Shown here: positions 26,674-41,971 of the stretch, piece after piece
How the letters are laid out: every line of letters starts with the position of its first letter
Position numbering within the stretch: position 1 is the first letter of the stretch
Source of the DNA: Vicinamibacterales bacterium
GTDB lineage: Bacteria > Acidobacteriota > Vicinamibacteria > Vicinamibacterales > UBA8438
DNA length: 64,000 nt
NCBI GenBank assembly: GCA_965207665.1
Contig: CBDBMV010000002.1
Coordinates: 1,945,704-2,009,703 of the forward strand
Reading direction: 5' to 3'
The notes under the pieces: generated by a model
Told to the model about the DNA's origin: nothing
The model's input: the letters and a program-made list of their open reading frames with translations, nothing else
The model's database searches: none
Made by a program: the position numbers and the translations under genes

Positions 26674-26898
26674 CCTCGCGGGACGCGAGATGATCAGTTC
26701 TCTTGCCACGGCTTCAGGCCTTTCTCTTGAGTGTCCCAATTCTAGCGCGATTGCGCCTCCAGTCAAGGCGCAGCTAGGCGCCCGCGTAGACAGGCAATCC
26801 AGCCGCGAATGGTGGTAGCCTACGAGCGGCCCGGAGGCTGCGGACGACCGGCCGCCGGGGGTTTGGGGCGCAGCCCCATGTAACAAAGGAACGTAGGC

Positions 26899-28962
26899 AT
26901 GCAGACCCTGGGCCGGATCGGCGGGTTCGTTCTGGCTGCTCTAGTCGTCGTTGTAGCCGCAGCGGCGCCGGCCGGCGCCCAGTACGGCGCACGGGCCGAC
27001 GGCGAGTGGCCGACGCATGGCGGGGATTTGGGCAACACGAAGTACTCGCCGCTCGATCAGATCACCGCGGACAACTTCGACCAGTTGGAGATTGTCTGGC
27101 GCTGGCGCTCGGCGGACGGGTTCCTCAGCAAAAGTGACGCGGCAGGCGGAGAGCTTTGGACCGACTCGCGGCTGATCTTCGACGCGCTCGACCGTGAGGA
27201 CCCGGACCGCTGGCGCGACCGCGAGCCGCCGTACGTCGCGCGGTTCAAGGCGACGCCCCTCATGGTCGGCGGGCGGTTGTTCGTGAACATGCCCACGTCG
27301 GTCGGCGCCGGCATCGACGCCCGCACGGGCGAGACGCTGTGGGTGTTCAACCCGAAGAGCTACGAGGCGGGCACCACGACCATGACCGCCCGCTGGATCC
27401 AGCGCGGCGTGGCCTACTGGACCGACGGCGATGCCGAGCGGGTGCTATGGGGGACGAGCGACGGGTACCTGGTGTCCGTCGACGCCGCCACGGGCAGGCC
27501 CGACGCCGCATTCGGCCGCAACGGCCGGGTCGACCTCATGGACGGGCTGCCCAACACGCGGCGCGGCGACCGCGACTGGCTCAACGCGCTGACCTACTCG
27601 GTGCAGTCGCCGCCGATCGTGGTGGGCGACATCATCGTCTCACCCGCGTCGATTTCGTCCTACAACATCAACCAGGAACAGGTGCCGGGCTGGACTCGCG
27701 GCTGGGACGTGCGGACCGGCGCGCGCCGGTGGACCTTCCGCACGGTGCCGCAGGGCGACGACTACGGCAACGACACCTGGGAGGGCGACTCCTGGCGCCG
27801 GTCGGGCAAGGTCAGCGGGTGGACGATCTACAGCGCCGACGAGGAGCTCGGCCTGCTGTACATCCCGCTGAACACCGTGGCCCCCGACTACTGGGGCGGC
27901 CAGCGGCTGGGCGACAACCTGTTCTCGGAGACGCTGCTGTGCCTCGACATCGAGACGGGCCAGCGCATGTGGCACTTCCAGGCCGCGCACCACGGTCTCT
28001 GGGACTACGACCTGCCGGCCGCGCCGAACCTGCTCGACATCACGGTCGACGGCCGCGAGATCAAGGCGGTGGCGCAGGTGACGAAGCAGGGGTTCGTATT
28101 CGCGTTCGACCGCGTGACGGGTGAGCCGGTGTGGCCGATCGAGGAACGCCCCGTGCCGGCGTCGGATATTCCCGGCGAGCGGGCCTCGCCGACGCAGCCG
28201 TTTCCGACGAAACCCGCCCCGTTCGAATACCAGGGCGTCACCATCGACGACCTGGTGGATTTCACCCCCGAGATCCGCCGGATGGCCGAGGAGGTCGTGT
28301 CGCACTTCCGCATCGGACCGCTCTACACGCCGCCCTCGCTGGTCGTGGAGGGGGGCAACCAGGGCACGCTGGCGCGGCCCAACGCTTCCGGGGCAGCGAC
28401 CTGGGTCGGCGCCGCGGTCGATCCGGAGACCGGCATGCTGTACGTCCCCTCCAACAATCTCTATTCCGTATTCCGGCTACGCGAGGCGTACCCCGGCGAG
28501 CCCGGGAACCTGCGCTACCGCGAGGCGCGTGACAGCGGCACGCCGCCGCGCATGCCGCAGGGCCTGCCCCTCTTCAAGCCGCCCTATACGCGGATGACGG
28601 CGATCGACATGAACACCGGCGACCACGCCTGGATGCAGCCGCTCGGCAACGGCGACCGCATCCGCAACCATCCCGCGCTCCGGCATCTCGACCTGCCTCC
28701 GCTGGGCGGGGACAGCGAGGACCACGGGCCGCTGCTCACGCCGACGCTCCTGATCAGTGCACTGTCGGCTGGCGGCACAGGCGATGGCCCGCAGCTCGTG
28801 GCCCGGGACAAGGGGACCGGGGAAGTCCTGGCCGCCATAGACCTGCCGCGGGGGGCGCTGGGGAGCCCGATGACCTACCTGCTCGACGGCAGGCAGTACA
28901 TCGCGCTTACGATTGGCGGCAGCCCGGTTCCGGAGCTCATCGCGCTGGCGCTTCCCGAGTGA
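26899..28962 (+). CDS. Soluble exported PQQ-dependent dehydrogenase, paralog 3 (more divergent)
   Basis: Signal peptide ...[100 protein letters not shown]. Confidence 0.8.
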   Translation: MQTLGRIGGFVLAALVVVVAAAAPAGAQYGARADGEWPTHGGDLGNTKYSPLDQITADNFDQLEIVWRWRSADGFLSKSDAAGGELWTDSRLIFDALDREDPDRWRDREPPYVARFKATPLMVGGRLFVNMPTSVGAGIDARTGETLWVFNPKSYEAGTTTMTARWIQRGVAYWTDGDAERVLWGTSDGYLVSVDAATGRPDAAFGRNGRVDLMDGLPNTRRGDRDWLNALTYSVQSPPIVVGDIIVSPASISSYNINQEQVPGWTRGWDVRTGARRWTFRTVPQGDDYGNDTWEGDSWRRSGKVSGWTIYSADEELGLLYIPLNTVAPDYWGGQRLGDNLFSETLLCLDIETGQRMWHFQAAHHGLWDYDLPAAPNLLDITVDGREIKAVAQVTKQGFVFAFDRVTGEPVWPIEERPVPASDIPGERASPTQPFPTKPAPFEYQGVTIDDLVDFTPEIRRMAEEVVSHFRIGPLYTPPSLVVEGGNQGTLARPNASGAATWVGAAVDPETGMLYVPSNNLYSVFRLREAYPGEPGNLRYREARDSGTPPRMPQGLPLFKPPYTRMTAIDMNTGDHAWMQPLGNGDRIRNHPALRHLDLPPLGGDSEDHGPLLTPTLLISALSAGGTGDGPQLVARDKGTGEVLAAIDLPRGALGSPMTYLLDGRQYIALTIGGSPVPELIALALPE

Positions 28963-28987
28963 GACAGGATCCAGACAAGGAGTTGTG

Positions 28988-30637
28988 ATGATTTTGCGAA
29001 AGAGAGCGCCATGGATCGCGGGACTCGGTGTGGCGCTGCTCGCCGGTTGCGCGGCGCCCGACCCGCCGGAACCGGCCGACTGGACGGTCACGGTGCTCGC
29101 GCAGGGCAGTCCGCTGCACGCCACCAACGGGATGTACTTCGGCCCCGACGGACGCCTCTACGTGGTCAGCGCGTCCAGCGCGACGGTGGCTGCCGTCGAC
29201 AAGGAGAGCGGGGAGGTCCTGGAGCGCTGGGGACCCGAGCTCGGCGTACAAGGGCCCGACGACATCACCTTCGGGGCGGACGGCTCCGCCTACTGGACCG
29301 AGTTCGCCTTCGGCGACGTCGCCAGGCGCACGCCGGACGGGACGATCTCCGTGATTGCCTCACCCGGCCGCGGTGTGAACCCGATCACGTTCTCGGACGA
29401 CGGCCGGCTGTTCGTGTCGCGATGTGCGCTGGGCCACGAGCTGTTCGAGATCGATCCGGACGGCGTCGAGGAGCCTCGCCTCATCACGGATCAGCTCGGT
29501 CCGGGCTGCGGTCTCAACGGCATGGACTGGGGGCCGGACGGCCGGCTGTACGGCCCGCGGCCGACTGGTCGCGAGGTGATGCGCGTGGATGTCGACAGCG
29601 GCACGTATGAGTCCGTCGCATCCGGCTTTCGGGCGCCGGTCGCGCTGAAGTTCGACTCGCAGCACCGGCTGCACGTGCTCGACAGCGGCACCGGCGAGGT
29701 GTTCCGGGTAGACATCGAGACCGGCGACAAGGAGCTTGCCGGCCAGACCGCGCCGAGCGCCGACAACCTGGTCTTCGATGCGGACGACCGGCTCTTCGTG
29801 TCGAGCTACGCCCACAGCTTCATCCTGGAGGTTCTCGGACCCGAGGAGAACCGCACGGTCATGGCCGGCGGCCCCAGTTTTCCGAGCGGTTTGGCCTGGC
29901 TGCCGGGCAATGGCGGCGCGGGCCGCCTGTTTCTGGCCGACCGCCGGGCGCTGCGGGAGCTGGATCCCCGGACCGGCGAGGAGCTCCACAACGTGGTCGG
30001 CAACACCACCGACGTGGGAGAAGCGATGTCGGCGTACCCGTATGGCGGGCAGCTCCTGCTTGGCGGCGCCACCACGGTCAGCATCTGGGATCCGGACGGC
30101 GACCGCCTCGTCCAGCGCTTCGAAGGTTTCGAGGAGACGAGCGACGTCCTCGCGCTGGGCGATGACATCATCGTGAGCGAGCACGAGACGGGCAGCGTGC
30201 TGCGCTTCAATCCGGCAGCGCCCGACGCCCGCGCCGTGCTGGCAAGTGGTCTCGACGAGCCTGCCGGTCTGGCCGCGCACGGGGACGACCTGTACGTCGC
30301 CGACCGCAGCGGGTCGCTCCTGCAGGTTCTCGACGACGGCGAGCGCCTGGATCCCCCGCGCGTGGTGGCTGATGGACTGGCCGGGCCCGAGGGTATCGCC
30401 GCCGGCGAGGATGGCGCGCTGTACGTCGTCGAGCAGGAAGCGGGCCGCGTGACGCAGGTGGATCCCGAGACCGGCGCCGCCACGCCCGTCGTCGAAGGTC
30501 TCACGCTCGACAGCCTCGAACAGAAGAGCATCGGGGTGACGACTGCCGTCGGATTCCTGTCCGACGTCACGGTCGGCGACGGCAGTCTCTATCTGTCGAG
30601 CTACGCGGAGAACCGTGTATACCGCATTGATCGTTGA
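28988..30637 (+). CDS. Beta-propeller lipoprotein (SMP-30/gluconolactonase/Vgb-lyase/NHL-like repeats), tandem copy 1
   Basis: Lipobox LLAGC. Repeated blades: NGMYFGPDGRLYVVS, GPDDITFGADGSAYWTE, NPITFSDDGRLFVS, PVALKFDSQHRLHVLD, PAGLAAHGDDLYVAD, PEGIAAGEDGALYVVE. Confidence 0.65.
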   Translation: MILRKRAPWIAGLGVALLAGCAAPDPPEPADWTVTVLAQGSPLHATNGMYFGPDGRLYVVSASSATVAAVDKESGEVLERWGPELGVQGPDDITFGADGSAYWTEFAFGDVARRTPDGTISVIASPGRGVNPITFSDDGRLFVSRCALGHELFEIDPDGVEEPRLITDQLGPGCGLNGMDWGPDGRLYGPRPTGREVMRVDVDSGTYESVASGFRAPVALKFDSQHRLHVLDSGTGEVFRVDIETGDKELAGQTAPSADNLVFDADDRLFVSSYAHSFILEVLGPEENRTVMAGGPSFPSGLAWLPGNGGAGRLFLADRRALRELDPRTGEELHNVVGNTTDVGEAMSAYPYGGQLLLGGATTVSIWDPDGDRLVQRFEGFEETSDVLALGDDIIVSEHETGSVLRFNPAAPDARAVLASGLDEPAGLAAHGDDLYVADRSGSLLQVLDDGERLDPPRVVADGLAGPEGIAAGEDGALYVVEQEAGRVTQVDPETGAATPVVEGLTLDSLEQKSIGVTTAVGFLSDVTVGDGSLYLSSYAENRVYRIDR

Positions 30638-30655: not shown

Positions 30656-32329
30656 ATGTTGACAAGACAGTCAGGATCACCCTCGCATGGCGCCGTCCGT
30701 GCGTGGATTGCAGTCTGCAGCGTGGCGCTGCTCGGCGGCTGCGCGGCGCCGGACCCGCCGGAACCGGCCTCGTGGACCGTGAGGGTGCTCGCCCAGGGCA
30801 GCCCCCTGCACGCCACGAACGGCATGTACTTCGGTCCCGACGGGCGCCTCTACGTCGTCAGCGCGTCGAGTGCGGTCGTGGCGGCGTTCGACCCCGAGAG
30901 CGGGGAGCTCCTGGACCAGTGGGGCCCCGGTATGGGCGTGCAGGGCCCCGACGACATTACCTTCGGTCCGGACGGCTCCGCCTACTGGACCGAGTTCGCC
31001 TTCGGCGACGTCGGCAAGCGCGCGCCCGACGGGACGATGTCCGTGATTGCCTCGCCCGGCCTCGGCGTGAATCCGATTACGTTCTCGGATGACGGCCGGC
31101 TTTTCGTGGCGCTGTGCGCGCTCGGTGAGGGGCTCTTCGAGATCGATCCGGACGGTGTCGAAGAGCCGCGCCTCATTGCCGACGGGCTCGGTCCGGGCTG
31201 CGGCCTGAACGGCATGGACTGGGGGCCGGACGACCGGCTGTACGCTCCGCGATTGACGGCGCGGAAGGTGGTGCGCATCGATGTCGATAGCGGCGCGTTC
31301 GAAACGGTCGCCACCGGCTTCGAGGCTCCGGTGGCGCTCAAGTTCGACTCGCAGCACCGGCTGCACGTGCTCGACAGCGGTACCGGCGAGGTGTTCCGGG
31401 TAGACATCGAGACCGGCGAGAAGCAGATCGTCGGGCAAACCGCGCCGAGCGCCGACAACCTGGCCTTCGACGCGGACGACCGGCTGTTCGTGTCGAACAA
31501 CGCCCACAGCTTCGTCGTCGAGGTCCTCGGACCCGAGACGAACCGGACGGTCGTCGCGGGCGTCGTCAGCTTCCCGGGCGGCCTGGCCTGGCTGCCGGAA
31601 GCCGATGGGTCGGGCCGACTGTTCCTAGCCGACCGCCGGGCGCTGCGCGAGTTGGATCCCGAGACCGGCGAAGAGCTGCACTTCGTGACCCGCCACGAGG
31701 GCGACGTGGGCGAGGCGCTGACGGCGCACCCGTACGGGGATCACTTGCTCCTGTCCGGCGCCACCAACGTCAGCATTTGGGATCCCGATGCGGATCGCCT
31801 GGTCAATCGCTTCGAAGGCTTCGAGCAGGCCAGCGACGCCCTCGTGCTGGGCGGCGACATCATCGTGAGCGAGTACGAGACGGGCAGCGTCATTCGCTTC
31901 GATCCCGACTCGCCGTATACGCGGGAGGTGGTGGCCAGCGGTCTCGAGGAGCCCGCCGGCCTCGCGGCCCATGGCGGCGATCTGTACGTGGCGGACCGGG
32001 CCGGAACGCTCCTGCAGGTCATCGACGGCGGCGAGCCCGTCGAGCCGCCCCGCGTGGTGGCTGACGGTCTGGCCGGCCCCGAGGGTATTGCCGCCGGCGA
32101 GGATGGCGCGCTGTACGTGGTGGAGGAAGACGCGGGCCGCGTAACGCGGGTGGATCCCGAGACCGGCGCGACAACACTGGTGGCGGACGGCCTCAGTCTC
32201 AGCAGCCTGGAGCAGAAGAGCATCGGGGAGTCGACATCGGTCGGGTTCCTGTCCGGCATCACGGTCGGCGACGGGAGCCTCTTCGTATCGAGCTATGCGG
32301 AGAACCGCGTATACCGCATCGATCCGTAA
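30656..32329 (+). CDS. Beta-propeller lipoprotein, tandem copy 2
   Basis: Lipobox LLGGC. Collinear with copy 1, with long identical stretches (CAAPDPPEPA.WTV.VLAQGSPLHATNGMYFGPDGRLYVVSASSA; PVALKFDSQHRLHVLDSGTGEVFRVDIETG). Confidence 0.65.
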   Translation: MLTRQSGSPSHGAVRAWIAVCSVALLGGCAAPDPPEPASWTVRVLAQGSPLHATNGMYFGPDGRLYVVSASSAVVAAFDPESGELLDQWGPGMGVQGPDDITFGPDGSAYWTEFAFGDVGKRAPDGTMSVIASPGLGVNPITFSDDGRLFVALCALGEGLFEIDPDGVEEPRLIADGLGPGCGLNGMDWGPDDRLYAPRLTARKVVRIDVDSGAFETVATGFEAPVALKFDSQHRLHVLDSGTGEVFRVDIETGEKQIVGQTAPSADNLAFDADDRLFVSNNAHSFVVEVLGPETNRTVVAGVVSFPGGLAWLPEADGSGRLFLADRRALRELDPETGEELHFVTRHEGDVGEALTAHPYGDHLLLSGATNVSIWDPDADRLVNRFEGFEQASDALVLGGDIIVSEYETGSVIRFDPDSPYTREVVASGLEEPAGLAAHGGDLYVADRAGTLLQVIDGGEPVEPPRVVADGLAGPEGIAAGEDGALYVVEEDAGRVTRVDPETGATTLVADGLSLSSLEQKSIGESTSVGFLSGITVGDGSLFVSSYAENRVYRIDP

Positions 32330-32390
32330 CAGCTGTGCAAGAATGGGCCGTGTCGGTTCGCCGGGGACGTCAGCAGGCGGGAGGAGTTCC

Positions 32391-34364
32391 GTGAGCAAGA
32401 AGAAGACGGCGGTGTCGAGACGGCGGTTCCTGAAGGAGGCGGGCGTGACGGCAGGCGCGGCCGCCGCGGTGGCCCCGGCCGGCGCGTCCGCGCTCGTGGG
32501 CGAGGCCGCTGCCGCTCCGCCCGATGCCGATATCCGGCTCGCGCCCGAGTTCGAGCCGTCCCGAGTTGCGCCCCTGCCGGAGCGCACGTGGCCGATGACG
32601 GCCGCCAACGTGTTCGCCGAGTGTTGCAAGGCGGAGGGGCTCGCGGCATTCATCCACTGTCCCGGCAACTACGCGGTCCAGAACGCGCTGGCCGAGGCCG
32701 GCATCCCCTCCTACGGGGGGCGGCACGATGGACACATGGGACACGCCTGCGACGCCTTCTACCGCGTCACCGGCGAGATCGCGGCGATCAACGCGCAGTG
32801 GGGCGGCTGCTTGGCGATGGGCATGTCGCCGTTCACGATCGCGCACAGCGCCTGCTCTCCCATCCTGATCCTCAGCGGCGCCGGCCGGGTCTCCGACGAG
32901 GACACGGGAAGGCGTAAGGGGATGGTGGCCGGCACCTGGCGCGACCAGTGGATGACCACGGGCGTGACGAAGTGGGGCAAGACCATCCTGACCGCCGACC
33001 GCGTCTGGGAGCACACCGCCGAAGCGTTCCGGCAGATGAAGACCGGGATTCCAGGGTCGACGCACCTGATCTTCCCGAACGACGTGCTCGCCGCCAGGTT
33101 CGAGACGCCGCGGGAATTGAGCTACCACTACGACAAGTCGAAGTACCGCACCGAAACCAGCCCGCACCCCGAGCCCAAGGCCATCACGGCGGCCATCGAC
33201 ATGCTCAGGAAGGCCGAGCGGCCGATGATCGTGTGCGGCCAGGGGGTCTTCGCCAAGAAGGCCTGGGACGAGCTGAAGGCGTTCGCGGAACGGATGCAGA
33301 TTCCGGTCGCCGAAGCCGCCCCGCAGAAGGGGACATTCGCGGACGACCACCCGCTGTCGGCGAGCGCGGCCCCGGACTCCTACGGCAGCGTCGACGTGGT
33401 CCTCGTCGTGGGTCACTACCGGATGCCGCCGCTCGGCCAGTGGGCGTTTCCCTTCAACGCGAAGTACATCCGGATACACCCGGTGCCGGAGGAGATCGGC
33501 CGCGATATCCCGATCGACGTGGGCATCGTGAGCTGTGAGAAGGCCGCTCTGCAGGCGCTCAACGACGAGGCGCCGCGCGTGAGCCGCGACAGTTGGATCG
33601 CCGAGGTGCGGGCCGCCGAGGAGAAGTACAACGCCAGGCGGGACGAGATCTACGCGCAGTGCCGGCCGTACTCCGAGCCCGGCGCGGTGCACCCTGCGGC
33701 CATCGCCCGGGCGGTGGGCGATTTCCTGCACGGCGGCGAAATCCCCAGGGACGAGATGACTATTGTCTCTGGAGGCTACGGGATCGCGCGCTACACGCGG
33801 CAGTACCTGCGCGCGTACCGTCCGGGGCAGATCCTCAACGGTCCGTACTGGGAGATCGTCGTCGGCCCCGACATCGCCTACACCCTGGGGGTCGGCGTGG
33901 CGATGGAGCTGGGCGCCGGCCCGCAGGCGGCGCACCGCGGAGCGCCGATCCTGACCATTACGGGAGACGCCGGCTTCGGCATCACCGGGTTGGAGATGGA
34001 GACGCTGGCGAAATACCGCATCCCGGCGATTGTGGTGGTCTACAACAACAACGCCTGGGGCACCTGGTCCGCCCAGCGCGGGCGCGCCGGATCCAGTGAC
34101 CGGCCGCGGAAGGAGCACCTGCACCTGTTCCAGGAGAACCTGCGCTACGACAAGGTCGGCGAGGCGCTGGGCTGCCACGGCGAGTACGTCACCGAGGCGG
34201 CCGAGGTCCTGCCCGCGCTGCGCCGCGCGTACGACGTCGCGGTGAACGACCGGCTGCCGACGGTCCTGAACGTCCAGGGCAAGAAGGAGTTCTGGGACGG
34301 TTCCGTGTATCCGCCGGCGATCCTGGGCAAGGTCGAGCCGGGCGTCGGCGCCTACTCCTACTGA
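32391..34364 (+). CDS. Thiamine-diphosphate-dependent enzyme (acetolactate-synthase/benzoylformate-decarboxylase superfamily) with a twin-arginine (Tat) signal
   Basis: GTG at 32391 is preceded by GGGAGGAG. VSKKKTAVSRRRFLKEAGVTAGAAAAVAPAGASA matches S-R-R-x-F-L-K. ThDP-binding motif TGDAGFGITGLEMETLAKYRIPAIVVVYNNNAWG. Confidence 0.75.
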   Translation: MSKKKTAVSRRRFLKEAGVTAGAAAAVAPAGASALVGEAAAAPPDADIRLAPEFEPSRVAPLPERTWPMTAANVFAECCKAEGLAAFIHCPGNYAVQNALAEAGIPSYGGRHDGHMGHACDAFYRVTGEIAAINAQWGGCLAMGMSPFTIAHSACSPILILSGAGRVSDEDTGRRKGMVAGTWRDQWMTTGVTKWGKTILTADRVWEHTAEAFRQMKTGIPGSTHLIFPNDVLAARFETPRELSYHYDKSKYRTETSPHPEPKAITAAIDMLRKAERPMIVCGQGVFAKKAWDELKAFAERMQIPVAEAAPQKGTFADDHPLSASAAPDSYGSVDVVLVVGHYRMPPLGQWAFPFNAKYIRIHPVPEEIGRDIPIDVGIVSCEKAALQALNDEAPRVSRDSWIAEVRAAEEKYNARRDEIYAQCRPYSEPGAVHPAAIARAVGDFLHGGEIPRDEMTIVSGGYGIARYTRQYLRAYRPGQILNGPYWEIVVGPDIAYTLGVGVAMELGAGPQAAHRGAPILTITGDAGFGITGLEMETLAKYRIPAIVVVYNNNAWGTWSAQRGRAGSSDRPRKEHLHLFQENLRYDKVGEALGCHGEYVTEAAEVLPALRRAYDVAVNDRLPTVLNVQGKKEFWDGSVYPPAILGKVEPGVGAYSY

Positions 34365-34382
34365 CCGGGCTCGCGCCCTGCG

Positions 34383-34847
34383 ATGGGGAAGCTGCCGGCG
34401 GCAGTCGTCCGGGACGGGCTGAAGGCCTACGCCGAGCGGGGGATCTTCAAGGAGCTCCGCGAGACGAAGGCAAGGTCCGGGAAGACGCGCTTCCAGTTCC
34501 TTCTGTTGGATGAATCAGTGACGGTGGAGCTTGCGGAGCGCGACCAGACGCTGGTCATCCGCGACATGCTGCGGCAGGTGCCGGCCGGTATGTACGCGGA
34601 CCTGCAGGACTTTCTGGAGGCGCTGTTCGAGCGCGGGCTGCCGCCCCACCGGCGCCTCGACCGGCGCTCGGCCGACATGCGATTCACGCGGCGGCGCGGC
34701 CGCGTATCGCTCGTCGTCAAGGTCAAGAACGGCAGGTACAGGTACGCCGTGGAAAAGCTCGTCAGCCTGATGGGTTGGGTGCGCACCCACCTGCAGCAGT
34801 GGCACCCGGCTTACCTGTGGGAAGTAGCTGGCGAATCAGAAGGATAG
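34383..34847 (+). CDS. Hypothetical cytoplasmic protein (no signal peptide), unknown function
   Basis: 154-aa ORF with coherent coding composition, 18 nt after the ThDP gene and 10 nt before the next gene. No motif recognised. Confidence 0.5.
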   Translation: MGKLPAAVVRDGLKAYAERGIFKELRETKARSGKTRFQFLLLDESVTVELAERDQTLVIRDMLRQVPAGMYADLQDFLEALFERGLPPHRRLDRRSADMRFTRRRGRVSLVVKVKNGRYRYAVEKLVSLMGWVRTHLQQWHPAYLWEVAGESEG

Positions 34848-34857
34848 GAGGATTGCC

Positions 34858-35475
34858 ATGAAGACGCGCGTTGCCATCGTCGGAGTAGCCGTCGTCTGCG
34901 TCGCGCTCGCTGTTCCGTCGCTGGTTACCGCCCAGGGGAGCGCGCCGGCAAAGCAGGTCGAGCCGTTCACCCACCTCAGCGCGCCGCGGGTCGAGCTCGG
35001 CGAGCCTACGCCGGGCGGTAGCGAGATGCGGCGGCTGTGTCCCAACCGTCTCGACCTGTGCGAGAAGTACTGGGCGTACACCGTGTACTTCGTGGACGGC
35101 TACACGATTCCCTTCCGCGACAAGGAGATCCTCATCCTCCGCACCGCCTGGTTGTCGCGAGGCGAGTACATCTGGGGGCGCCACTACGTCAGGGGCAAGG
35201 AGTCCGGTCTGACGGACGAGGAGATCGAACGGATCACCGAAGGGCCCGCGGCGCCGGGGTGGAGTGACTTCGACGCGACGCTGCTACGAGCTGCGGACGA
35301 GCTGCACACGAGCCGTTTCGTCAGCGACGCCACCTGGAACGCGCTGTCCGCGCGCTATACCGAGGATCAGGTGCGGGAGGTGGTGATGATCGTCGGAGAC
35401 TACACCCAACTCGCCATGTTCCAGAACAGCCTCGGGGCGCAGTTGCCGCCGGGGTACGACGGCCTCCCGGACTAG
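34858..35475 (+). CDS. Secreted carboxymuconolactone-decarboxylase (CMD/AhpD-like) family protein
   Basis: Signal peptide MKTRVAIVGVAVVCVALAVPSLVTAQG. ILILRTAWLSRGEYIWGRH...LTDEEIERI...LLRAADELH...ARYTEDQVREVVMIVGDYTQLAMF is typical of the CMD fold. Confidence 0.6.
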   Translation: MKTRVAIVGVAVVCVALAVPSLVTAQGSAPAKQVEPFTHLSAPRVELGEPTPGGSEMRRLCPNRLDLCEKYWAYTVYFVDGYTIPFRDKEILILRTAWLSRGEYIWGRHYVRGKESGLTDEEIERITEGPAAPGWSDFDATLLRAADELHTSRFVSDATWNALSARYTEDQVREVVMIVGDYTQLAMFQNSLGAQLPPGYDGLPD

Positions 35476-35487
35476 CCGCGCATTCGA

Positions 35488-36051
35488 TCAACGGCCGGGA
35501 ATCATGATGTGCGACGCGGAAGTCCCCGCATCCATGATCCAGGTTCCCGCTTGGTTGTAGGCGCCCTCTTCCGGCAGCTTCAGGTCGTCGCCCGTCGCGA
35601 ACGGCACCGCCACCGTGATGTGGGCCTGGTGCGGTGTCACCGAGGCCTGGTCCTGGCCGGTCAGCGAGTACCAGACGCTGCCGTACGCCGGCGCAACGCG
35701 CGACCCGTCGGCTTCGGCGGCCGCGATCGCCTGGCGCCCACCTTCCGCGTTGCCGCCGGACATCCTCAGCCGGTGGGTCTGCTTGGCGCGCTCCAGGTTC
35801 CCCTCGTCGGTGCACTGGACGGCGAACGAGCGGCCGGGCTCGTTGGATCGGTCGTAGCAGACCAGGCCGTTGGTGCCCTCGCGTAGCACTTCGTGGCTCC
35901 CGTCGGCCGCGATGCGCACGACCATGGCCGCTTCCGCCAAGGCCCTGGGCGCCGCGAGGACCGCGCGCGCGATCTCCTCTTCCGCCGACTGGGCCAGCAC
36001 GGGCGTGGACGCCGCCGCGAGGACAAAGGAAACAATCAGCAGCCGCTTCAT
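35488..36051 (-). CDS. Secreted protein, unknown function
   Basis: Signal peptide MKRLLIVSFVLAAASTPVLAQS. 187 aa with coherent composition. No family recognised. Confidence 0.5.
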   Translation of the reverse strand: MKRLLIVSFVLAAASTPVLAQSAEEEIARAVLAAPRALAEAAMVVRIAADGSHEVLREGTNGLVCYDRSNEPGRSFAVQCTDEGNLERAKQTHRLRMSGGNAEGGRQAIAAAEADGSRVAPAYGSVWYSLTGQDQASVTPHQAHITVAVPFATGDDLKLPEEGAYNQAGTWIMDAGTSASHIMIPGR

Positions 36052-36097: not shown

Positions 36098-36616
36098 TCA
36101 GTTTCCCGATCGGCCGAGCTGCGGATCCGGGTACGGCTTGATGACGCGTTGCTTGATGCGCCAGCCGTCCGCGGTCCTGACGAAGACGTCCTCGTAGTGG
36201 CCGGCGCTGGAAACCGTGGGCGGCGTAGCCGCGACGTCGAGCAGCATGTAGTAGGTGCGTCCGGTCGCGCCGTCGGCCGTCGGCGTGAGCACGACGCCAT
36301 TCGTCCAGTGCCGCCTGCTGCTCGCGCCCCCGCCCGGAACGCGCGTGGAGCGCCGGTACTCCCGGAGCCGATCGTGACCGACGAACGACTCGCCATCGGG
36401 ACGCGTCCAGGAGCCGTCGGGAGTCCACTGGGAGACCCACAGGTCGCTGTCGTTGAAGTCCGCTCCCTGGTTCAGGCTCGTCAGGATGTGCCGGATCTCG
36501 GCCTGGTCCGCCGGAGTGAGCTGCATGGCCGTCCCGCCGCCCTGTGCGCCGGCCGGGCCGCCGCCCGCGAGCACCATCCCCAGCAGCGCGGCCACCGCGA
36601 TCATCTGTCTATGCAT
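36098..36616 (-). CDS. Secreted SnoaL-like / NTF2-fold protein
   Basis: MHRQMIAVAALLGMVLAGGGPAGAQ signal. ...AEIRHILTSLNQG...WTPDGSW...GHYEDVFVRTADGWRIKQRVI has the pattern of SnoaL_4/NTF2-like proteins. Confidence 0.5.
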   Translation of the reverse strand: MHRQMIAVAALLGMVLAGGGPAGAQGGGTAMQLTPADQAEIRHILTSLNQGADFNDSDLWVSQWTPDGSWTRPDGESFVGHDRLREYRRSTRVPGGGASSRRHWTNGVVLTPTADGATGRTYYMLLDVAATPPTVSSAGHYEDVFVRTADGWRIKQRVIKPYPDPQLGRSGN

Positions 36617-36694: not shown

Positions 36695-37882
36695 TCAACC
36701 CGCTGAAACCGGCGCCGCCCGGACGGCGCCGGCGACGACGTCGATGAGCGCGTCGAGGTCCGCGGCGTCGTTGTACAGGTGCGGCGCGACGCGGATGGCG
36801 CCGCCGCGCAGCGAAACCGACACCTGCCGCGCGGCGAGGCTGCGGCCAAGCTGCGCGATGTCCACGTCGGCTGGCAGGCGCACGCCCAGCAGGTGTCCGG
36901 CGCGCCAGCGCTCGTCCTCGATGCGGCAGCCCAGCTCGCGGAGCCGATCCGCCGCCGCGGCGGTCAGGGCGCGCGTGTGCGCGGCGACCGTTTCCGGCCG
37001 CCATTCGCGCACCTGCTCGAGGGCGGCTTCGAACATGGGCAGCAGAATGAAGTTCGATCTCTCGCCGACGTCGTAGCGGATGGCGCCCGGCCGATAGTCG
37101 TCGCGGTAGTTGACCAGCTCGTTGAAGCGGTCGCTGGCGGGGCGGGTGATCCAGTTCTCCTCGAGCGGCGTACCGCCGTCGAAGGTGGGACCGAACCAGG
37201 CCGCGCCGACGGAGTAGGGGCCGGTCAGCCACTTGTAGCCGGCGCAGGCCAGGGCGTCGGGCCGGATGCGCCCGACGTCGAACGGCAGCGCCCCGACCGA
37301 CTGCGTCCCGTCGATGACGAAGCGGGCGCCCACGGCGCGCGCCCGCGCGCCGATCGCTTCGAGGTCGAAGCGCAGCCCGTCGGTCCAGTGCAGCTCCGGA
37401 ACGGCAACCACCGCCGTCCGCTCGTCGATCGCGTCGAGCAGGGCGGCGTTCCACGCCTCGGCGCGCGAGGCGGCGGTGTCCGGCGCGGCGACGGTCCGCA
37501 GCGTGGCGCCCGCCTCGCGGCCGGCGCGCCGCCAGGTGTAAACGACACTCGGGAACTGCTCCTGGACGACTACCACCGTCTGTCCAGGCGCGAGCGGCGT
37601 GTTGCGTGCAATCGTCGCCATGGCGTACGAAACCGACGGAATGATCGCCACGCGGTCCGGGTCGGGCGCGCCGATGATGTCCGCGAAGAGCCGGCGGACG
37701 CGCGCGCCAGGCTCGAAGAAGTCCGGCACTCCGAGCCGGGCGGGCGCCTCTATGCGCTCGATGGCCCGGCGTCCGGCCGCGGCGACGTGCTTCGAGGCCG
37801 GCGCCATGAACGCGCAGTTGAGGTAGTGCGACTCGGCCGGCAACGAGAAGAGCGACCGGTATGCGCCTGGTTGAGGCCCCAT
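36695..37882 (-). CDS. Aminotransferase class-V fold PLP-dependent enzyme (cysteine-desulfurase/isopenicillin-N-epimerase-like)
   Basis: SLFSLPAESHYLNCAFMAPASKHV..., FVIDGTQSVGALPFD, ACAGYKWLTGPYSVGAAW (Lys-containing PLP block), VSVSLRGGAIRVAPHLYN. No signal peptide. Confidence 0.75.
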   Translation of the reverse strand: MGPQPGAYRSLFSLPAESHYLNCAFMAPASKHVAAAGRRAIERIEAPARLGVPDFFEPGARVRRLFADIIGAPDPDRVAIIPSVSYAMATIARNTPLAPGQTVVVVQEQFPSVVYTWRRAGREAGATLRTVAAPDTAASRAEAWNAALLDAIDERTAVVAVPELHWTDGLRFDLEAIGARARAVGARFVIDGTQSVGALPFDVGRIRPDALACAGYKWLTGPYSVGAAWFGPTFDGGTPLEENWITRPASDRFNELVNYRDDYRPGAIRYDVGERSNFILLPMFEAALEQVREWRPETVAAHTRALTAAAADRLRELGCRIEDERWRAGHLLGVRLPADVDIAQLGRSLAARQVSVSLRGGAIRVAPHLYNDAADLDALIDVVAGAVRAAPVSAG

Positions 37883-37959: not shown

Positions 37960-39948
37960 CTATGGCTCCGCCGGCGTGTACCAGATGGGGGAGCTCCAGG
38001 CGCGTTCCTTCACGGTCGGCGGGTCGGATGGGGGCGGCGCCATGCCGCGCGCCAGCGCGCGGTGGGTCGTCCACCGGCAGGTCGGGTTCTCGAGCACCCG
38101 GACGTAGTAGAACGCCCGCTGCGCGGGATCGAAATCCGGGTCGGTCCAGGTGGTGCTCAGCTCGGCGGCGCCCAGATCGGTCGAATAGCTGCAGTCGGAC
38201 AGGTCCACCGTGGCGCCGTTGTCCGCGCAGCGGCGGGTCTGCGGGTCGGGCTCCAGCCCGTCGGCGCAGGCGACGTCGTAGACCTGCTCGGCCGTCTGTA
38301 CGCCTGAAGGGGCGAACGGCGCCGAGGGCTCGCCGGTCTCGGCCCAACCCTTGACGATCTGGATCTTCTGCAGGTTCGCGCTCGCGGGGTCCCTCATGGC
38401 CCAGACGACGAAGCGGGGGCCGTCGAGGGTATCGCCGCCGGGCGGGTCCGGCAGGTCCGAGCCCATCGGCACGCCGCCGGCGTATGCCGCCTCCAGCATG
38501 TCTCGCCGGGTATCGAGGTCGGCGGGGTAGTCCCAGCCCGCGAAGAAGCGCACGGGGATGCGGGGACCGCTGTTGCCAAAGGTCTCGCGGCGGCGCAGCG
38601 CGTCGAAGATGGCGTCGCGCGTATTGGCATCGGCCCACACGCCGACCAGGCCGCCGGGATTGTTGGCGTTGCCGCCGTCGGGCCGATCGCCGAACCAGGC
38701 CGGGCCGCTGTCGGCACCCCGGCCCAGCATGCCGGAGCCGATGCCGCCGCTGGTGCCGAACTTGACCGGCCGGGTGGCGAATTCTTCCTCGTCGGCCGCT
38801 CCCGCGAGGCTCTGGTGGTCGTCCGGGCTGGCGATGAAGCCGAACTTGAACGGATTCACGCCGTAGTCGGCCTCCAGCCGCAGGCCGGCCTTGAGCGCGT
38901 TGCGGACGTAGTCCGACGCGGTGGCGCAGCCCCCGCGCTCGCCCGGCTCGCAGATGGGCTGGTAGGTCTCGAAGTTGCATTCCTCGTCCGTGGTGCCCAG
39001 CCCCACGTAGCACTCGGAGTTGCCCTTGATCTGGTGAATCTCGACCAGCGGCTCGGTCCGGGCGCGCAGGCGCAGCGTCTGCGGCGTATACGGTATCCAT
39101 GCGTATTCCTCGAAGGCCGAGCCGCCGCTCAGGTTGGAGTTGTGTGGAATCGCCAGCACCTGGCAGTCGCCAGTACACGCCTCCTCGAGCCATTTCCAGA
39201 GCCGCTCGGGACGGTTCTCCATCGCGACGGATGAGCCGCCCCACTCCGGCACGGCGCCACCGCGGAAGATGACGTTGCGGTGCAGGTGGCCGAAGCCGGG
39301 CGGGTTGGCCGTCCATTCGTACGCCGGAAAGGTGGTGAAGCGCCCCGGCTCGTTGAACGCGTCCGCGTTGCGCTGCACCGCGTGCCACTGGTGCCGCGCG
39401 CGCTCGTAGCACTTGTTGTCGGCGGACATGGCGGGCTCGTTCTGGCCGCAGATGTCGGCGGGCACACGCCCGCGCGCTTCGAAGTCCCCGTAGCCGAACC
39501 AGGCGCTGGCGCGGATCTGCTCGCAGGTGGGCGTGGCGTAGGCGGCATCGCTCTCGTCCAGGCACAGGTGGACGGTGCCGAGCCAGATGTCGTGGTCGGT
39601 CACCGCCATGAAGTCGAGAGGCACCCGCAACTGCAGCGTCCGTCCGTCGGCCGTCGTCACCTCCTCGCCCCGGCCGAAGCGGTACGCCATGGAGGGGTCG
39701 TTGCGGTTGCCGCCCAGCGAATAGGCGTCCAGGGACCAACTGCTGTGCACGTGGAAGTCGCCGTAGTAGGCGTTGCGCAGCGGGTTGCGCTCTACCTCCG
39801 GGGCGGCGGTGTCCGCCGCCGCGGCCGGTTGTGCCTCTTCTCCGCCGGGCGCATCCTGCTCCGGCCCGGCGCAGCCGGCCGCAAGCAGCGGCAGGCAGAT
39901 GGCCGCAAATGTCACGCCGCCGAAGAATCGAGAGCGCTTGCACCGCAT
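37960..39948 (-). CDS. DUF3604/PHP-like lipoprotein, array copy 1 (subtype A)
   Basis: Lipobox LLAAGC. NPLRNAYYGDFHVHSSWSLDAY, DFMAVTDH, HRNVIFRG, ACTGDCQVLAIPHNSNLSGG, EIHQIKGNSEC, FKFGFIASPDDHQS, NPTCRWTT, ERAWSSPIWYTP. Start ATG 39948 (or GTG 39954). Confidence 0.75.
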   Translation of the reverse strand: MRCKRSRFFGGVTFAAICLPLLAAGCAGPEQDAPGGEEAQPAAAADTAAPEVERNPLRNAYYGDFHVHSSWSLDAYSLGGNRNDPSMAYRFGRGEEVTTADGRTLQLRVPLDFMAVTDHDIWLGTVHLCLDESDAAYATPTCEQIRASAWFGYGDFEARGRVPADICGQNEPAMSADNKCYERARHQWHAVQRNADAFNEPGRFTTFPAYEWTANPPGFGHLHRNVIFRGGAVPEWGGSSVAMENRPERLWKWLEEACTGDCQVLAIPHNSNLSGGSAFEEYAWIPYTPQTLRLRARTEPLVEIHQIKGNSECYVGLGTTDEECNFETYQPICEPGERGGCATASDYVRNALKAGLRLEADYGVNPFKFGFIASPDDHQSLAGAADEEEFATRPVKFGTSGGIGSGMLGRGADSGPAWFGDRPDGGNANNPGGLVGVWADANTRDAIFDALRRRETFGNSGPRIPVRFFAGWDYPADLDTRRDMLEAAYAGGVPMGSDLPDPPGGDTLDGPRFVVWAMRDPASANLQKIQIVKGWAETGEPSAPFAPSGVQTAEQVYDVACADGLEPDPQTRRCADNGATVDLSDCSYSTDLGAAELSTTWTDPDFDPAQRAFYYVRVLENPTCRWTTHRALARGMAPPPSDPPTVKERAWSSPIWYTPAEP

Positions 39949-39979
39949 CGTCACACCTCCCGTGCTGCGGCCGCCGCGG

Positions 39980-41971
39980 CTATTGCCCCGCGGGCGTGTA
40001 CCAGATCGGCGAGCTCCACGCCCGCTCCTTGATAACCGGCGGCACGTCGACCGCCAGCTCGGCGCCGCTCTCCAGTGCGCGCCATGTCGTCCAGCGGCAG
40101 GTGGGATTCTCGAGCACCCGGACATAGTAGAACGCCCGCAGGGACGGATCGAACTCCGGGTCGGTCCAGGTTGCGCTCAGCTCCGCCGCGCCCGCGCCGC
40201 CCACCGTGCTGCAGTCGGCCAGGTTCACCTGCGCACCGTTGTCCGCGCACCGCCGCGTCCCGGGGTCCGGCGGTTGGCCATTGTCGCACGCCACGTCGTA
40301 TACCCGCTCGGCGGTGCCGCCGTCCGGGTCGTCCCAGCCCTTGACGATCTGCAGCTTCTGCAGGTGGGCGCTGTTCGCGTCGCGGGTGGCCCACACGACG
40401 AATTGCGGTGCGTCAGCGCCGCCGGTCGCCGCCGGCAGGTCGCCGCCCATCGGCACGCCGCTGCGGTAGCCCTCTGCGACCAGGTCCGGGCGCGTATGCG
40501 TGTCGGCCGGCAGTTCCCAGCCGCCGAAGAAGCGGATCCGGATGCTCGGGCCGCTCGTGGCGAACGTCTCGCGCCGCCTGAGGGCGTCGAAGATCGCGTC
40601 GCGCGTATTTTCTTCGGCCCAGACGGCGGCCAGGCCACCCGGATTGTTGACGGGCGTGCCCAGCGTCAGGGAGCGGAGCTCGGGATTGTTGAGGATGGTG
40701 CTCGGCGTCGTGGCGCCGATCTCGCCGAAGAAGCTGCCCTGCCACGCAACTTCGTCGACCGACCCCGACATGCTGCGGTGGTCGTCGGTGCTGCCGATGA
40801 TGCCGTACTTGAACGGGTTGATGCCGTGCTCAGCTTCGACCTCAAGACCGGTCTTGAGGGCGTTACGGACGAGGTTGGACGCGACGGTGCACCTGGCCAC
40901 GACCTGTTGCGGATTGGACGGCATCGTGTCCGGGTCGCAGGGCTCGAACACCTGCTCGAAGTTGCACTCCTCGTCCGAGGTGAGCAAACCGGATGCACAC
41001 TCCGAGTTGCCCTTGACCTGGTGGATTTCGATCAGCGGCTCGCGCCGCGCCCGCCGCTCGAGGATCTCGGTGGTGAACGGGGTGCCGTCGGCGTTGTTGG
41101 GCGCCAGCGCGACGCCCATCCCATAGTTGGTGTTGTGCGGAATGGCGATCACGTCGCAGTCGCCGGTGCACGCCGCGTCCATCCACTCCCAGAGCCGCTC
41201 CGGCGTATGCCGCGTGGCGACCGATGTCCCGTTGTCCCACGGTGGGATGTCGTCGCCGCGGAAGAATACGTTGCGATGCAGCATACCCCCGCTGGCCGAC
41301 TGCACCGCGGTGAACTCGAAGGCGGTGAACGTCGTGAACACGCCCGGCTCGTAGTAGGCGTCGGCCATCTCCCGAATCAGCGTCCACTGGTGTGCGGCGC
41401 GCTGGTCGCAGCGGTTGTCCGGACCGGGTTCCGCGCTGCCGCAGAACTCCGGGTCGCGCCGCGACTGGAGCCACGCGCCGCGGATGCGGGCAAAAAACGC
41501 CCCGCGGCTGCCTGACTCGAGCTCTCCGCACACGGCGAGGTCGCGGGTGGGCGCCTCGGGATCCTGGCAGAGCAGCACTTCGCCCATCCAGCCGGCGTGG
41601 TCGGTCACCGCCATGAAGTCGAGCGGCGTGCGCAGTTGCCCGCGCAGATTGCCGTCCGTGTCGGTGATCGGGTCGCCCCGGCCGTAGCGGTAGGCCACCG
41701 AGGGGTCGTTCTGCATCGGGTGGCCGAACGCCCAGGCGTCGAGCGACCAACTGCTGTGAACGTGCAGGTCGCCGAAGTAGGCGTTGCGGAGCGGGTTACG
41801 ATCCACTTCCGGGCCAGCCGGTGCATCCGTCGTGCCCGCCGGTTCTGCCTCCTGACCGCCGGGAGCGTCCTGCACGGGTCCCGCGCAGCCGGCCGCAAGC
41901 AGCAGCGGCAGGCAGATGGCCGCCAATTTCTCACCGCCGGGAAATCGACAGCGCGTACACCGCATCGTCAA
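39980..41971 (-). CDS. DUF3604/PHP-like lipoprotein, array copy 2 (subtype B)
   Basis: Lipobox LLAAGC. YFGDLHVHSSWSLDAWAFGHPMQNDPSVAYRYGRGDPITD, DFMAVTDH, AIPHNTNYGMG, EIHQVKGNSEC, FKYGIIGSTDDHRSMSGS, ERAWSSPIWYTP. Confidence 0.75.
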   Translation of the reverse strand: MTMRCTRCRFPGGEKLAAICLPLLLAAGCAGPVQDAPGGQEAEPAGTTDAPAGPEVDRNPLRNAYFGDLHVHSSWSLDAWAFGHPMQNDPSVAYRYGRGDPITDTDGNLRGQLRTPLDFMAVTDHAGWMGEVLLCQDPEAPTRDLAVCGELESGSRGAFFARIRGAWLQSRRDPEFCGSAEPGPDNRCDQRAAHQWTLIREMADAYYEPGVFTTFTAFEFTAVQSASGGMLHRNVFFRGDDIPPWDNGTSVATRHTPERLWEWMDAACTGDCDVIAIPHNTNYGMGVALAPNNADGTPFTTEILERRARREPLIEIHQVKGNSECASGLLTSDEECNFEQVFEPCDPDTMPSNPQQVVARCTVASNLVRNALKTGLEVEAEHGINPFKYGIIGSTDDHRSMSGSVDEVAWQGSFFGEIGATTPSTILNNPELRSLTLGTPVNNPGGLAAVWAEENTRDAIFDALRRRETFATSGPSIRIRFFGGWELPADTHTRPDLVAEGYRSGVPMGGDLPAATGGADAPQFVVWATRDANSAHLQKLQIVKGWDDPDGGTAERVYDVACDNGQPPDPGTRRCADNGAQVNLADCSTVGGAGAAELSATWTDPEFDPSLRAFYYVRVLENPTCRWTTWRALESGAELAVDVPPVIKERAWSSPIWYTPAGQ

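Follow-up and report, generated by a model that had tools for sequence, protein, structure and literature searches.

In bacteria, enzymes that depend on thiamine diphosphate (ThDP) are treated as cytoplasmic, the textbook cargo exported by twin-arginine translocation (Tat) is loaded with metal or redox cofactors, and the enzymology of ThDP and the biology of Tat are currently non-overlapping fields. The present work concerns a gene in a 64,000-nucleotide stretch from a Vicinamibacterales bacterium (GenBank assembly GCA_965207665.1, contig CBDBMV010000002.1, positions 1,945,704 to 2,009,703 of the forward strand; hereafter the window) that encodes a ThDP enzyme with a predicted Tat signal peptide, together with the small gene directly downstream of it (hereafter the partner). 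The enzyme shares its three-domain fold and its metal/diphosphate motif with 2-hydroxyacyl-coenzyme A (CoA) lyase (HACL) and HACS, oxalyl-CoA decarboxylase (OXC), benzaldehyde lyase (BAL)/formolase (6XN8, 8VZA-K, 7PT1-4, 2Q27, 2C31, 2AG0), and BbmA (8X3X). From HACL, OXC, and BAL, to which it is about 22–24% identical, it differs in having a Tat leader, an extension after the leader, a conserved C-terminal tail, an Asp at position 113, and a partner of 154 amino acids; moreover, the CoA and adenosine diphosphate (ADP) of HACL and OXC are not expected at its predicted location.

A ThDP enzyme of the closest family is placed in another compartment in eukaryotes, where 2-hydroxyacyl-CoA lyase (HACL1) is peroxisomal, the entry of tightly bound thiamine pyrophosphate into peroxisomes is assumed to be coupled to protein import, much as in Tat export, and the peroxisomes can import folded, even oligomeric proteins (PMC7463629 and its reference 22). 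That case differs from the present one in being eukaryotic, in relying on peroxisomal import instead of Tat, and in having its CoA-thioester substrate available in the organelle. The first-pass annotation of the locus, made from the sequence alone, had stated that ThDP enzymes of this superfamily are essentially all cytoplasmic, which is too broad for eukaryotes given the peroxisomal HACL but stands for prokaryotes. Full-text literature searches, with most subscription journals outside their coverage, brought up no account of a ThDP enzyme that is exported by Tat or resides in the periplasm. As in TorA/TorD, DmsA/DmsD, and NapA/NapD, a cofactor enzyme with a twin-arginine leader stands beside a small protein without a signal; the cofactor is molybdopterin or Fe-S in those systems, whereas ThDP is predicted here, and the partner, which is basic and has a different predicted shape, matches neither TorD/DmsD nor NapD in sequence.

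The best overall explanation, which we consider probable, is that the enzyme and the partner act as a unit in which a Tat-exported ThDP enzyme would carry out carbonyl chemistry in the periplasm. The wider proposal, that this would be the first prokaryotic ThDP family outside the cytoplasm, with a Tat-exported holoenzyme, a new cargo partner resembling type III secretion chaperones, and an Asp-activated, cytochrome-independent subclade with its own periplasmic carbonyl chemistry in a sponge symbiont, is put forward tentatively, at somewhat less than an even chance. New here are the strict linkage of enzyme and partner on independent loci, the modelled fold and the basicity of the partner, a complex prediction that passes weakly, and an Asp-type subclade without cytochrome in which substitutions are clustered. 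Neither the partner gene nor the Asp-for-Glu exchange figured in the first-pass annotation. If the proposal holds, ThDP would join the cofactors that are exported already protein-bound, the cleavage or formation of carbonyl C–C bonds would become part of periplasmic metabolism (e.g., downstream of pyrroloquinoline quinone (PQQ) dehydrogenases or TonB-dependent uptake), and a new partner family would be added to Tat cargo. The natural Asp-for-Glu variant offers a means to probe how much freedom there is in placing the cofactor-activating carboxylate. Formolase and HACS of this branch serve in synthetic one-carbon assimilation, so that a periplasmic member working without CoA could be of interest for biocatalysis.

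The enzyme (P0001; coordinates of all features are given in Table 1) is translated from a GTG as a protein of 657 amino acids with the N-terminus VSKKKTAVSRRRFLKEAG. A 98% identical protein (P0002, N-terminus MTKKKTAVSRRRF) shares this start and the homologues of 657–660 amino acids begin at the equivalent residue, bearing out the GTG chosen in the first-pass annotation; no homologue points to a true start 3′ of the twin-arginine (RR) motif. An in-frame ATG at 32295 was rejected as a start, as a frame opened there would extend back into the preceding gene, whose end is at 32329. Promoter and terminator scans between 26500 and 36200 performed no better than on shuffled sequence.

The leader comprises an n-region with the residues KKK, an SRRRFLK motif, and an Ala/Gly-rich h-region. 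Residues S9-R10-R11-R12-F13-L14-K15 correspond to the S-R-R-x-F-L-K consensus, and A32-S33-A34 and E38-A39 are candidate cleavage sites. With a mean Kyte-Doolittle value of 1.19 over residues 17–38 and of 1.49 in the best 19-residue window, the h-region lacks the hydrophobicity needed for a membrane helix and fits a Tat signal better than an anchor; no lipobox is present in the leader. Taken alone, residues 1–45 reach 20.7 bits with TIGR01409, the NCBIfam Tat-signal model (curated cut-off 16.7), and match a formate-dehydrogenase Tat-target model as well (E 1.7e-6), while the AlphaFold2 (AF2) model places them outside the folded body, with a predicted local distance difference test (pLDDT) score below 50 for residues 1–8 and 18–45. 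The claim of a full Tat leader, with consensus, hydrophobic stretch, and AxA-like region, was thus upheld, and the leader proved to be conserved among the homologues: an RRx[F..][L..] pattern occurs within the first 40 residues in 113 of the 121 (44–98% identity, mostly 640–660 amino acids), and the other eight start inside the leader or are fragments and look truncated or mis-started. Outside the motif the leader drifts freely in sequence, as signal peptides do. The host genome encodes TatC (230.5 bits) and two TatA/B-type genes. Judged from its sequence, the twin-arginine signal of the enzyme is genuine, and the family as a whole has kept it.

The body of the enzyme contains the Pfam domains TPP_enzyme_N (PF02776, residues 69–173), TPP_enzyme_M (PF00205, 265–390), and TPP_enzyme_C (PF02775, 468–627), all above their gathering cut-offs and in the PYR, TH3/middle, PP order of the ThDP-dependent decarboxylase (POX/ALS-type) superfamily. 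The ThDP motif of the GDG-X24-NN type that had been noticed at first was recovered as GDAG-X24-NNN, in which G525, D526, G528, N553, and N554 are invariant among 56 aligned homologues. By sequence, the closest solved relatives are HACL 6xn8 (E 5.7e-41), OXC, BbmA, and BAL/formolase (down to E 4e-24), and the structural ranking of the AF2 model (mean pLDDT 82.5) agrees with this order. Foldseek matched the model to HACL/OXC with E-values of about 1e-37, target-normalized TM scores of up to 0.86, and the same 22–24% identity, and placed the ADP-binding OXC/HACL and the flavin adenine dinucleotide-binding glyoxylate carboligase almost level. All NCBIfam scores fall far below their cut-offs (NF006721 (OXC) 152.8 vs. 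557, TIGR03254 146.1 vs. 739.4, NF058623 (HACL) 129.8 vs. 600), and in its own genome the enzyme has a single close relative, a 52% identical paralogue, the next ThDP enzyme being about 22–25% identical. The domain architecture and sequence matches indicate a three-domain ThDP enzyme of the OXC/HACL/BAL branch, within which the low identity, the sub-cut-off NCBIfam scores, and the isolation within the genome mark the family as a separate, unnamed lineage of ThDP enzymes. The extension of about 25 residues after the leader (PIxIPxEF...PLP) and the C-terminal tail are conserved in the family.

The genomic context was compared in 35 loci from GTDB species genomes and the paralogue of the own genome, using our own open reading frame (ORF) calling. 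The partner gene was found beside the enzyme gene in all 33 loci that had room for it on the contig, the own-genome paralogue included, and in a tblastn search of all window neighbours against the 35 loci and the paralogue it was the sole neighbour travelling with the enzyme. The family is sparse in the phylum: 8 of 201 sampled Acidobacteriota genomes contain it, as counted by the partner, and in five of the eight partner-holding genomes that were checked, eight out of eight partner genes adjoin eight enzyme genes, with the gene order reversed once. In one acidobacterial genome (G016:C32:17919-21227) the partner gene, instead of following directly downstream, is found upstream of the enzyme gene at a distance of about 1 kb. 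By their gene order across these genomes, the enzyme and the partner form a unit.

An exhaustive HMMER search delimited the partner family to 161 cluster representatives, none of which has a hydrophobic leader. Fused enzyme–partner forms were looked for among longer proteins and none was found, which is weak evidence. One metagenomic representative of 575 amino acids (P0225) joins a partner-like domain (residues 15–134, the last helix missing) to a region with two CxxCH motifs and has no signal; it is probably a gene-call or assembly artefact rather than a rare fusion with a cytochrome-like domain. The partner (P0122) matches no Pfam family at E-values of up to 10, and none of 74 family members matches TorD/DmsD, NapD, CesT, YbjN, ACT, or ALS_ss_C (E-values of up to 1 for the chaperone families). 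A profile of the family found nothing below E 0.69 among the PDB sequences, and an atlas feature search gave a weak pointer to DUF2299, which is carried by 36% of the nearest cluster. Near-invariant residues are Y16, R19, G20, W41, H89-R90-R91, and Y144, and the isoelectric point (pI) of the partner is 10.2 (family median 9.4).

The AF2 model of the partner, built with the 74 family sequences as alignment, reached a pLDDT of 96.1 and a predicted TM score of 0.88, with the order alpha-beta4-alpha-beta2-alpha. In the VIA comparison its top match was 7tut_4, a chain of a translocon complex (Z 8.5, root-mean-square deviation 3.6 Å, 133 residues aligned), and about 20 of the best 35 matches were type III secretion class I chaperones or YbjN-like proteins, e.g., Spa15 (2xga_A, Z 8.1, 3.4 Å, 116 aligned), 2plg (Z 7.8, 3.6 Å, 126 aligned), SigE (1k3s_B, Z 7.7, 2.8 Å, 94 aligned), and SrcA (Z 7.6, 2.8 Å, 98 aligned), followed by SycN/YscB, SycH, SicP, InvB, AmyR, DR_1245, and TtfA at Z 6.6–7.1. 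The predicted alpha-beta-sheet-alpha-beta2-alpha order resembles that of Spa15, SigE, SrcA, SycH, ExsC, AmyR, DR_1245, and TtfA (VIA Z 6–8.1 over 94–127 residues), whereas the partner differs from type III class I chaperones and YbjN-like proteins in lacking sequence similarity to them, in one extra strand, in its pI, and in being linked to a Tat substrate. The modelled shape is chaperone-like, of the secretion-chaperone/YbjN kind, with a match that possibly reflects a common arrangement only. Complex prediction with the full-length enzyme gave a score of 0.58 (best of three controls 0.00), which is weak support. The mark applied is reached by 58 of 80 solved complexes and by 2 of 110 mismatched pairs, and scores at or below 0.60 belong to only 7 of the 80 solved complexes and to both passing mismatches. 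The runs agreed in at least 75% of the contacts, with a partner pLDDT of at least 85. Because of the complex prediction and the strict gene linkage, we consider it likely that the partner binds the enzyme.

In the superfamily, the cofactor-activating Glu (standard position 51) is near-universal and treated as a hallmark, though not strictly defining; glyoxylate carboligase, the known exception, is active with a Val at this position (PMC3534367). The window's enzyme has Asp113 there, as do 13 of 118 aligned family members, the other 105 having Glu, and Asp113 was found in all 14 loci of the window's clade (enzyme at least 67% identical). A total of 42 positions are diagnostic for this clade and cluster at 134–148, 176–185, 482–491, and 531, the last coming right behind the GDAGFG motif. 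Within 2.5 kb, none of the 14 loci of the window's clade encodes a CxxCH protein, whereas in 9–10 of 21 loci whose enzyme is 44–58% identical to that of the window the partner gene is immediately followed by the gene for a monohaem cytochrome c (Pfam Cytochrome_CBB3/Cytochrom_C), i.e., the cytochrome c association in the Glu clade is frequent, not constant. The window's clade thus differs from its Glu-type relatives, which have the same partner family, in the missing cytochrome c, Asp113, the 42 substitutions, and, in close relatives, a neighbour of the CMD family. We read the Asp113 clade as a functionally diverged subfamily rather than as a product of decay, because frame, Tat leader, metal motif, and partner stay conserved throughout it (62–98% identity). 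Asp113, the remodelled diagnostic residues, and the missing cytochrome c together suggest that the subclade probably catalyses a different, perhaps non-oxidative, C–C cleavage or decarboxylation than its cytochrome-linked relatives.

In the mechanism that we propose, the enzyme would fold, at least dimerize, and load ThDP and Mg2+ in the cytoplasm; since ThDP sites in this superfamily are built between two subunits, the cofactor and the metal would be bound at the interface of at least a dimer. The partner would bind before or during export, with about an even chance of being a dedicated cytoplasmic holding or proofreading chaperone that possibly keeps the loaded enzyme inactive inside the cell. 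The host TatABC would move a cargo of at least ~135 kDa (as dimer) across the inner membrane, the leader would be cleaved, and the enzyme would then be periplasmic and act on a free 2-oxo acid, alpha-hydroxyketone, dicarbonyl, or aldehyde that reaches this compartment or arises in it. Since the periplasm offers neither CoA nor ADP, the substrate is probably a free carbonyl compound. The exported neighbours of the pair (a PQQ dehydrogenase, propeller lipoproteins, and the CMD-family protein) and the TonB-dependent receptors of its relatives are consistent with such a periplasmic substrate.

Two other readings of the N-terminus were considered. The RR segment might serve as a docking peptide for the partner or as a regulatory tail of an enzyme that stays in the cytoplasm and acts on a CoA thioester. 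To our knowledge, all characterized bacterial ThDP enzymes of this superfamily are indeed cytoplasmic, no counter-example was found in the literature searched, the closest solved relatives are CoA-dependent, the partner lacks a signal, and the mature enzyme has 10 cysteines; the N-terminus, on the other hand, shows all three regions of a Tat leader and not the RR pair only, passes TIGR01409, and is kept in 113 of 121 homologues while its remaining sequence drifts, and both the local and the recurrent neighbours (PQQ dehydrogenases, lipoproteins, TonB-dependent receptors, cytochromes c) are exported or outer-membrane proteins, so that we regard retention in the cytoplasm as improbable. It is also unlikely, in our judgement, that the leader stays uncleaved after translocation and, like that of Rieske proteins, keeps the enzyme tethered at the inner membrane's outer face: the candidate AxA sites do vary between homologues and the conserved stretch after the leader could be a linker, but the hydropathy of the Ala/Gly-rich h-region lies below that of usual membrane helices, a lipobox is missing, and most homologues have small residues at −3/−1 near the end of the h-region.

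The partner could be a structural or regulatory small subunit that hitchhikes on the Tat signal of the enzyme (cf. the small and large subunits of hydrogenase, and PaoABC) instead of a cytoplasmic chaperone. Acetohydroxyacid synthase (AHAS), a ThDP enzyme of the same superfamily, has small subunits of similar size. The strict 1:1 gene adjacency, a weak complex pass that suits stable and transient binding alike, and a basic pI unlike that of known export chaperones agree with a subunit, and hitchhiking of multi-subunit Tat cargo is established (PMC4273604). We nevertheless hold this to be the less likely role, since the predicted fold resembles secretion chaperones and not the ACT-type small subunits of AHAS, no Pfam ACT or ALS small-subunit match occurs in the 74 partner members, and the cargo, already at least 135 kDa as a dimer, would gain further mass; some third role for the partner is less likely still. 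As for the enzyme, its subclade might be a catalytically inactive or non-ThDP paralogue, e.g., a binding protein that has kept the fold, given the replaced cofactor-activating Glu and the concentration of the 42 clade-specific changes in four short stretches. This appears quite improbable to us, because the diphosphate/Mg2+ motif and most family-invariant residues are kept, Asp retains a carboxylate, glyoxylate carboligase works with Val (PMC3534367), and the clade is conserved with intact frame, signal, and partner.

Several points weigh against a Tat-exported, partner-assisted, active ThDP enzyme. We infer export, cleavage, cofactor content, activity, and substrate alike, and the closest characterized relatives use CoA thioesters, with OXC binding ADP, both cytoplasmic metabolites. 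Ten cysteines are unusual for a mature periplasmic protein, although a Tat substrate can tolerate them. With Asp standing where the cofactor is activated, the activity could be low or altered; in other ThDP enzymes, exchanging this Glu for Asp strongly impairs the mutants. The partner is basic, unlike the classical chaperones of secretion and those that proofread Tat cargo, which are generally acidic; Foldseek returned nothing at E ≤ 0.001 for the partner model against the PDB, the best match being the type III chaperone ExsC at E 0.016, and the matches found by VIA are in the range (Z of about 8 or below) in which, by the tool's own caveat, a common arrangement may be all that is reflected. 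The predicted enzyme–partner complex passes only weakly. Finally, the neighbourhood beyond the partner is not conserved past close relatives, and the context therefore says little on the substrate.

According to the labels of metagenome-assembled genomes (MAGs), the enzyme family occurs in several phyla (Acidobacteriota, Acidimicrobiia, Burkholderiales) down to 44% identity, and its nearest relatives (enzyme 90–96% identical) are Vicinamibacterales/Vicinamibacteria MAGs. Near-identical DNA was present in sponge-metagenome runs of several studies, the contigs of one run being 95–99% alike across the stretch. Contigs from a sponge metatranscriptome library, representing a 93–95% identical relative, cover most of the enzyme gene, and one of them spans the enzyme–partner junction (34125–34516); some bins of the stretch had no coverage, to which we attach no meaning. 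This gives a hint of co-transcription and no more than that, because the contigs carry no information on strand or level and DNA can contaminate RNA libraries.

Table 1. Features of the window around the enzyme and partner genes, in window coordinates
Feature	Position	Strand	Basis or remark
Tat-signal ThDP enzyme gene (P0001; signal predicted)	32391..34364	+	Open frame, Pfam domains, >120 homologues of 640-660 aa
Shine-Dalgarno-like sequence GGGAGGAG	32379..32386	+	4 nt ahead of GTG; read directly in the sequence
Twin-arginine signal peptide (predicted)	32391..32507	+	~Residues 1-39, end approximate; TIGR01409, conserved RR motif, AF2, hydropathy
GAT codon for Asp113, which replaces the cofactor-activating Glu (R-H-D where Glu-type members have R-H-E)	32727..32729	+	Alignment to the RNE-motif Glu of 6xn8; codon checked
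ThDP/Mg2+-binding motif GDAG...(24)...NNN (putative)	33963..34052	+	Residues 525-554, G525-D526-A527-G528 ... N552-N553-N554
154-aa partner gene (P0122)	34383..34847	+	Starts 18 nt past the enzyme stop; no signal peptide; basic; chaperone-shaped (model)
205-aa CMD-family protein	34858..35475	+	Pfam CMD E 6.7e-7; Sec-type signal peptide; 10 nt past the partner gene
Two tandem NHL/SGL-type beta-propeller lipoproteins	28985-30637 and 30656-32329	+	~79% identical mutually; lipoboxes LAGC, LGGC
PQQ-dependent dehydrogenase beta-propeller protein	26899..28962	+	Signal peptide; Pfam PQQ E 1.8e-175
Exported ~460-aa protein	25291-26886	-	Leader MLFVGALLVAAGLVAMPANA; one haem-c motif CQNCH; no synteny with the enzyme in relatives

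The order propeller–enzyme–partner–CMD is common to the relatives whose enzyme is at least 90% identical, and at 67–74% identity only the enzyme–partner pair is left. The CMD-family gene accordingly stands beside the pair only in the former group; the idea that its product is an AhpD-like dithiol partner was dropped because it has no CxxC motif. The two propeller lipoproteins result from a recent tandem duplication, since in close relatives only one copy is found upstream of the enzyme. The PQQ dehydrogenase of the window is not syntenic in close relatives, although PQQ dehydrogenases recur near distant family members (L027, L039). The exported protein encoded at 25291–26886 matches no Pfam family above threshold (Haem_bd alone comes up, at E 0.016), and its His-rich motifs FTIHHMGIH and EPHMHASG resemble copper monooxygenase sites. 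As neither this haem protein nor the PQQ dehydrogenase is syntenic, a reading of the whole region as one periplasmic operon is partly genome-specific. Neighbours that recur beside distant members are TonB-dependent receptors (five loci including the own paralogue), PQQ dehydrogenases (two loci and the window), NHL propellers, and cytochromes c, all of them envelope proteins, which fits an extracytoplasmic role and names no substrate.

The second pair of the own genome (G000:C2:1005244-1007675, L040:9215-11655) comprises the 52% identical enzyme (1005244–1007157), which is of the Glu type and has an RR leader. No cytochrome c gene lies close to this pair; just downstream, on the opposite strand, a TonB-dependent receptor is encoded, and upstream there is a 351-amino-acid ORF that matches no Pfam family.

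Downstream of the CMD-family gene, two small exported proteins with Sec-type leaders are encoded on the minus strand (35488–36051, 188 amino acids; 36098–36616, 173 amino acids), the gene of the second being conserved beside an aminotransferase gene (36695–37882) in relatives. A DUF3604 protein (37960–40125, minus strand, Pfam E 5e-189) follows, of which relatives have up to three tandem paralogues (L005:13483-17970).

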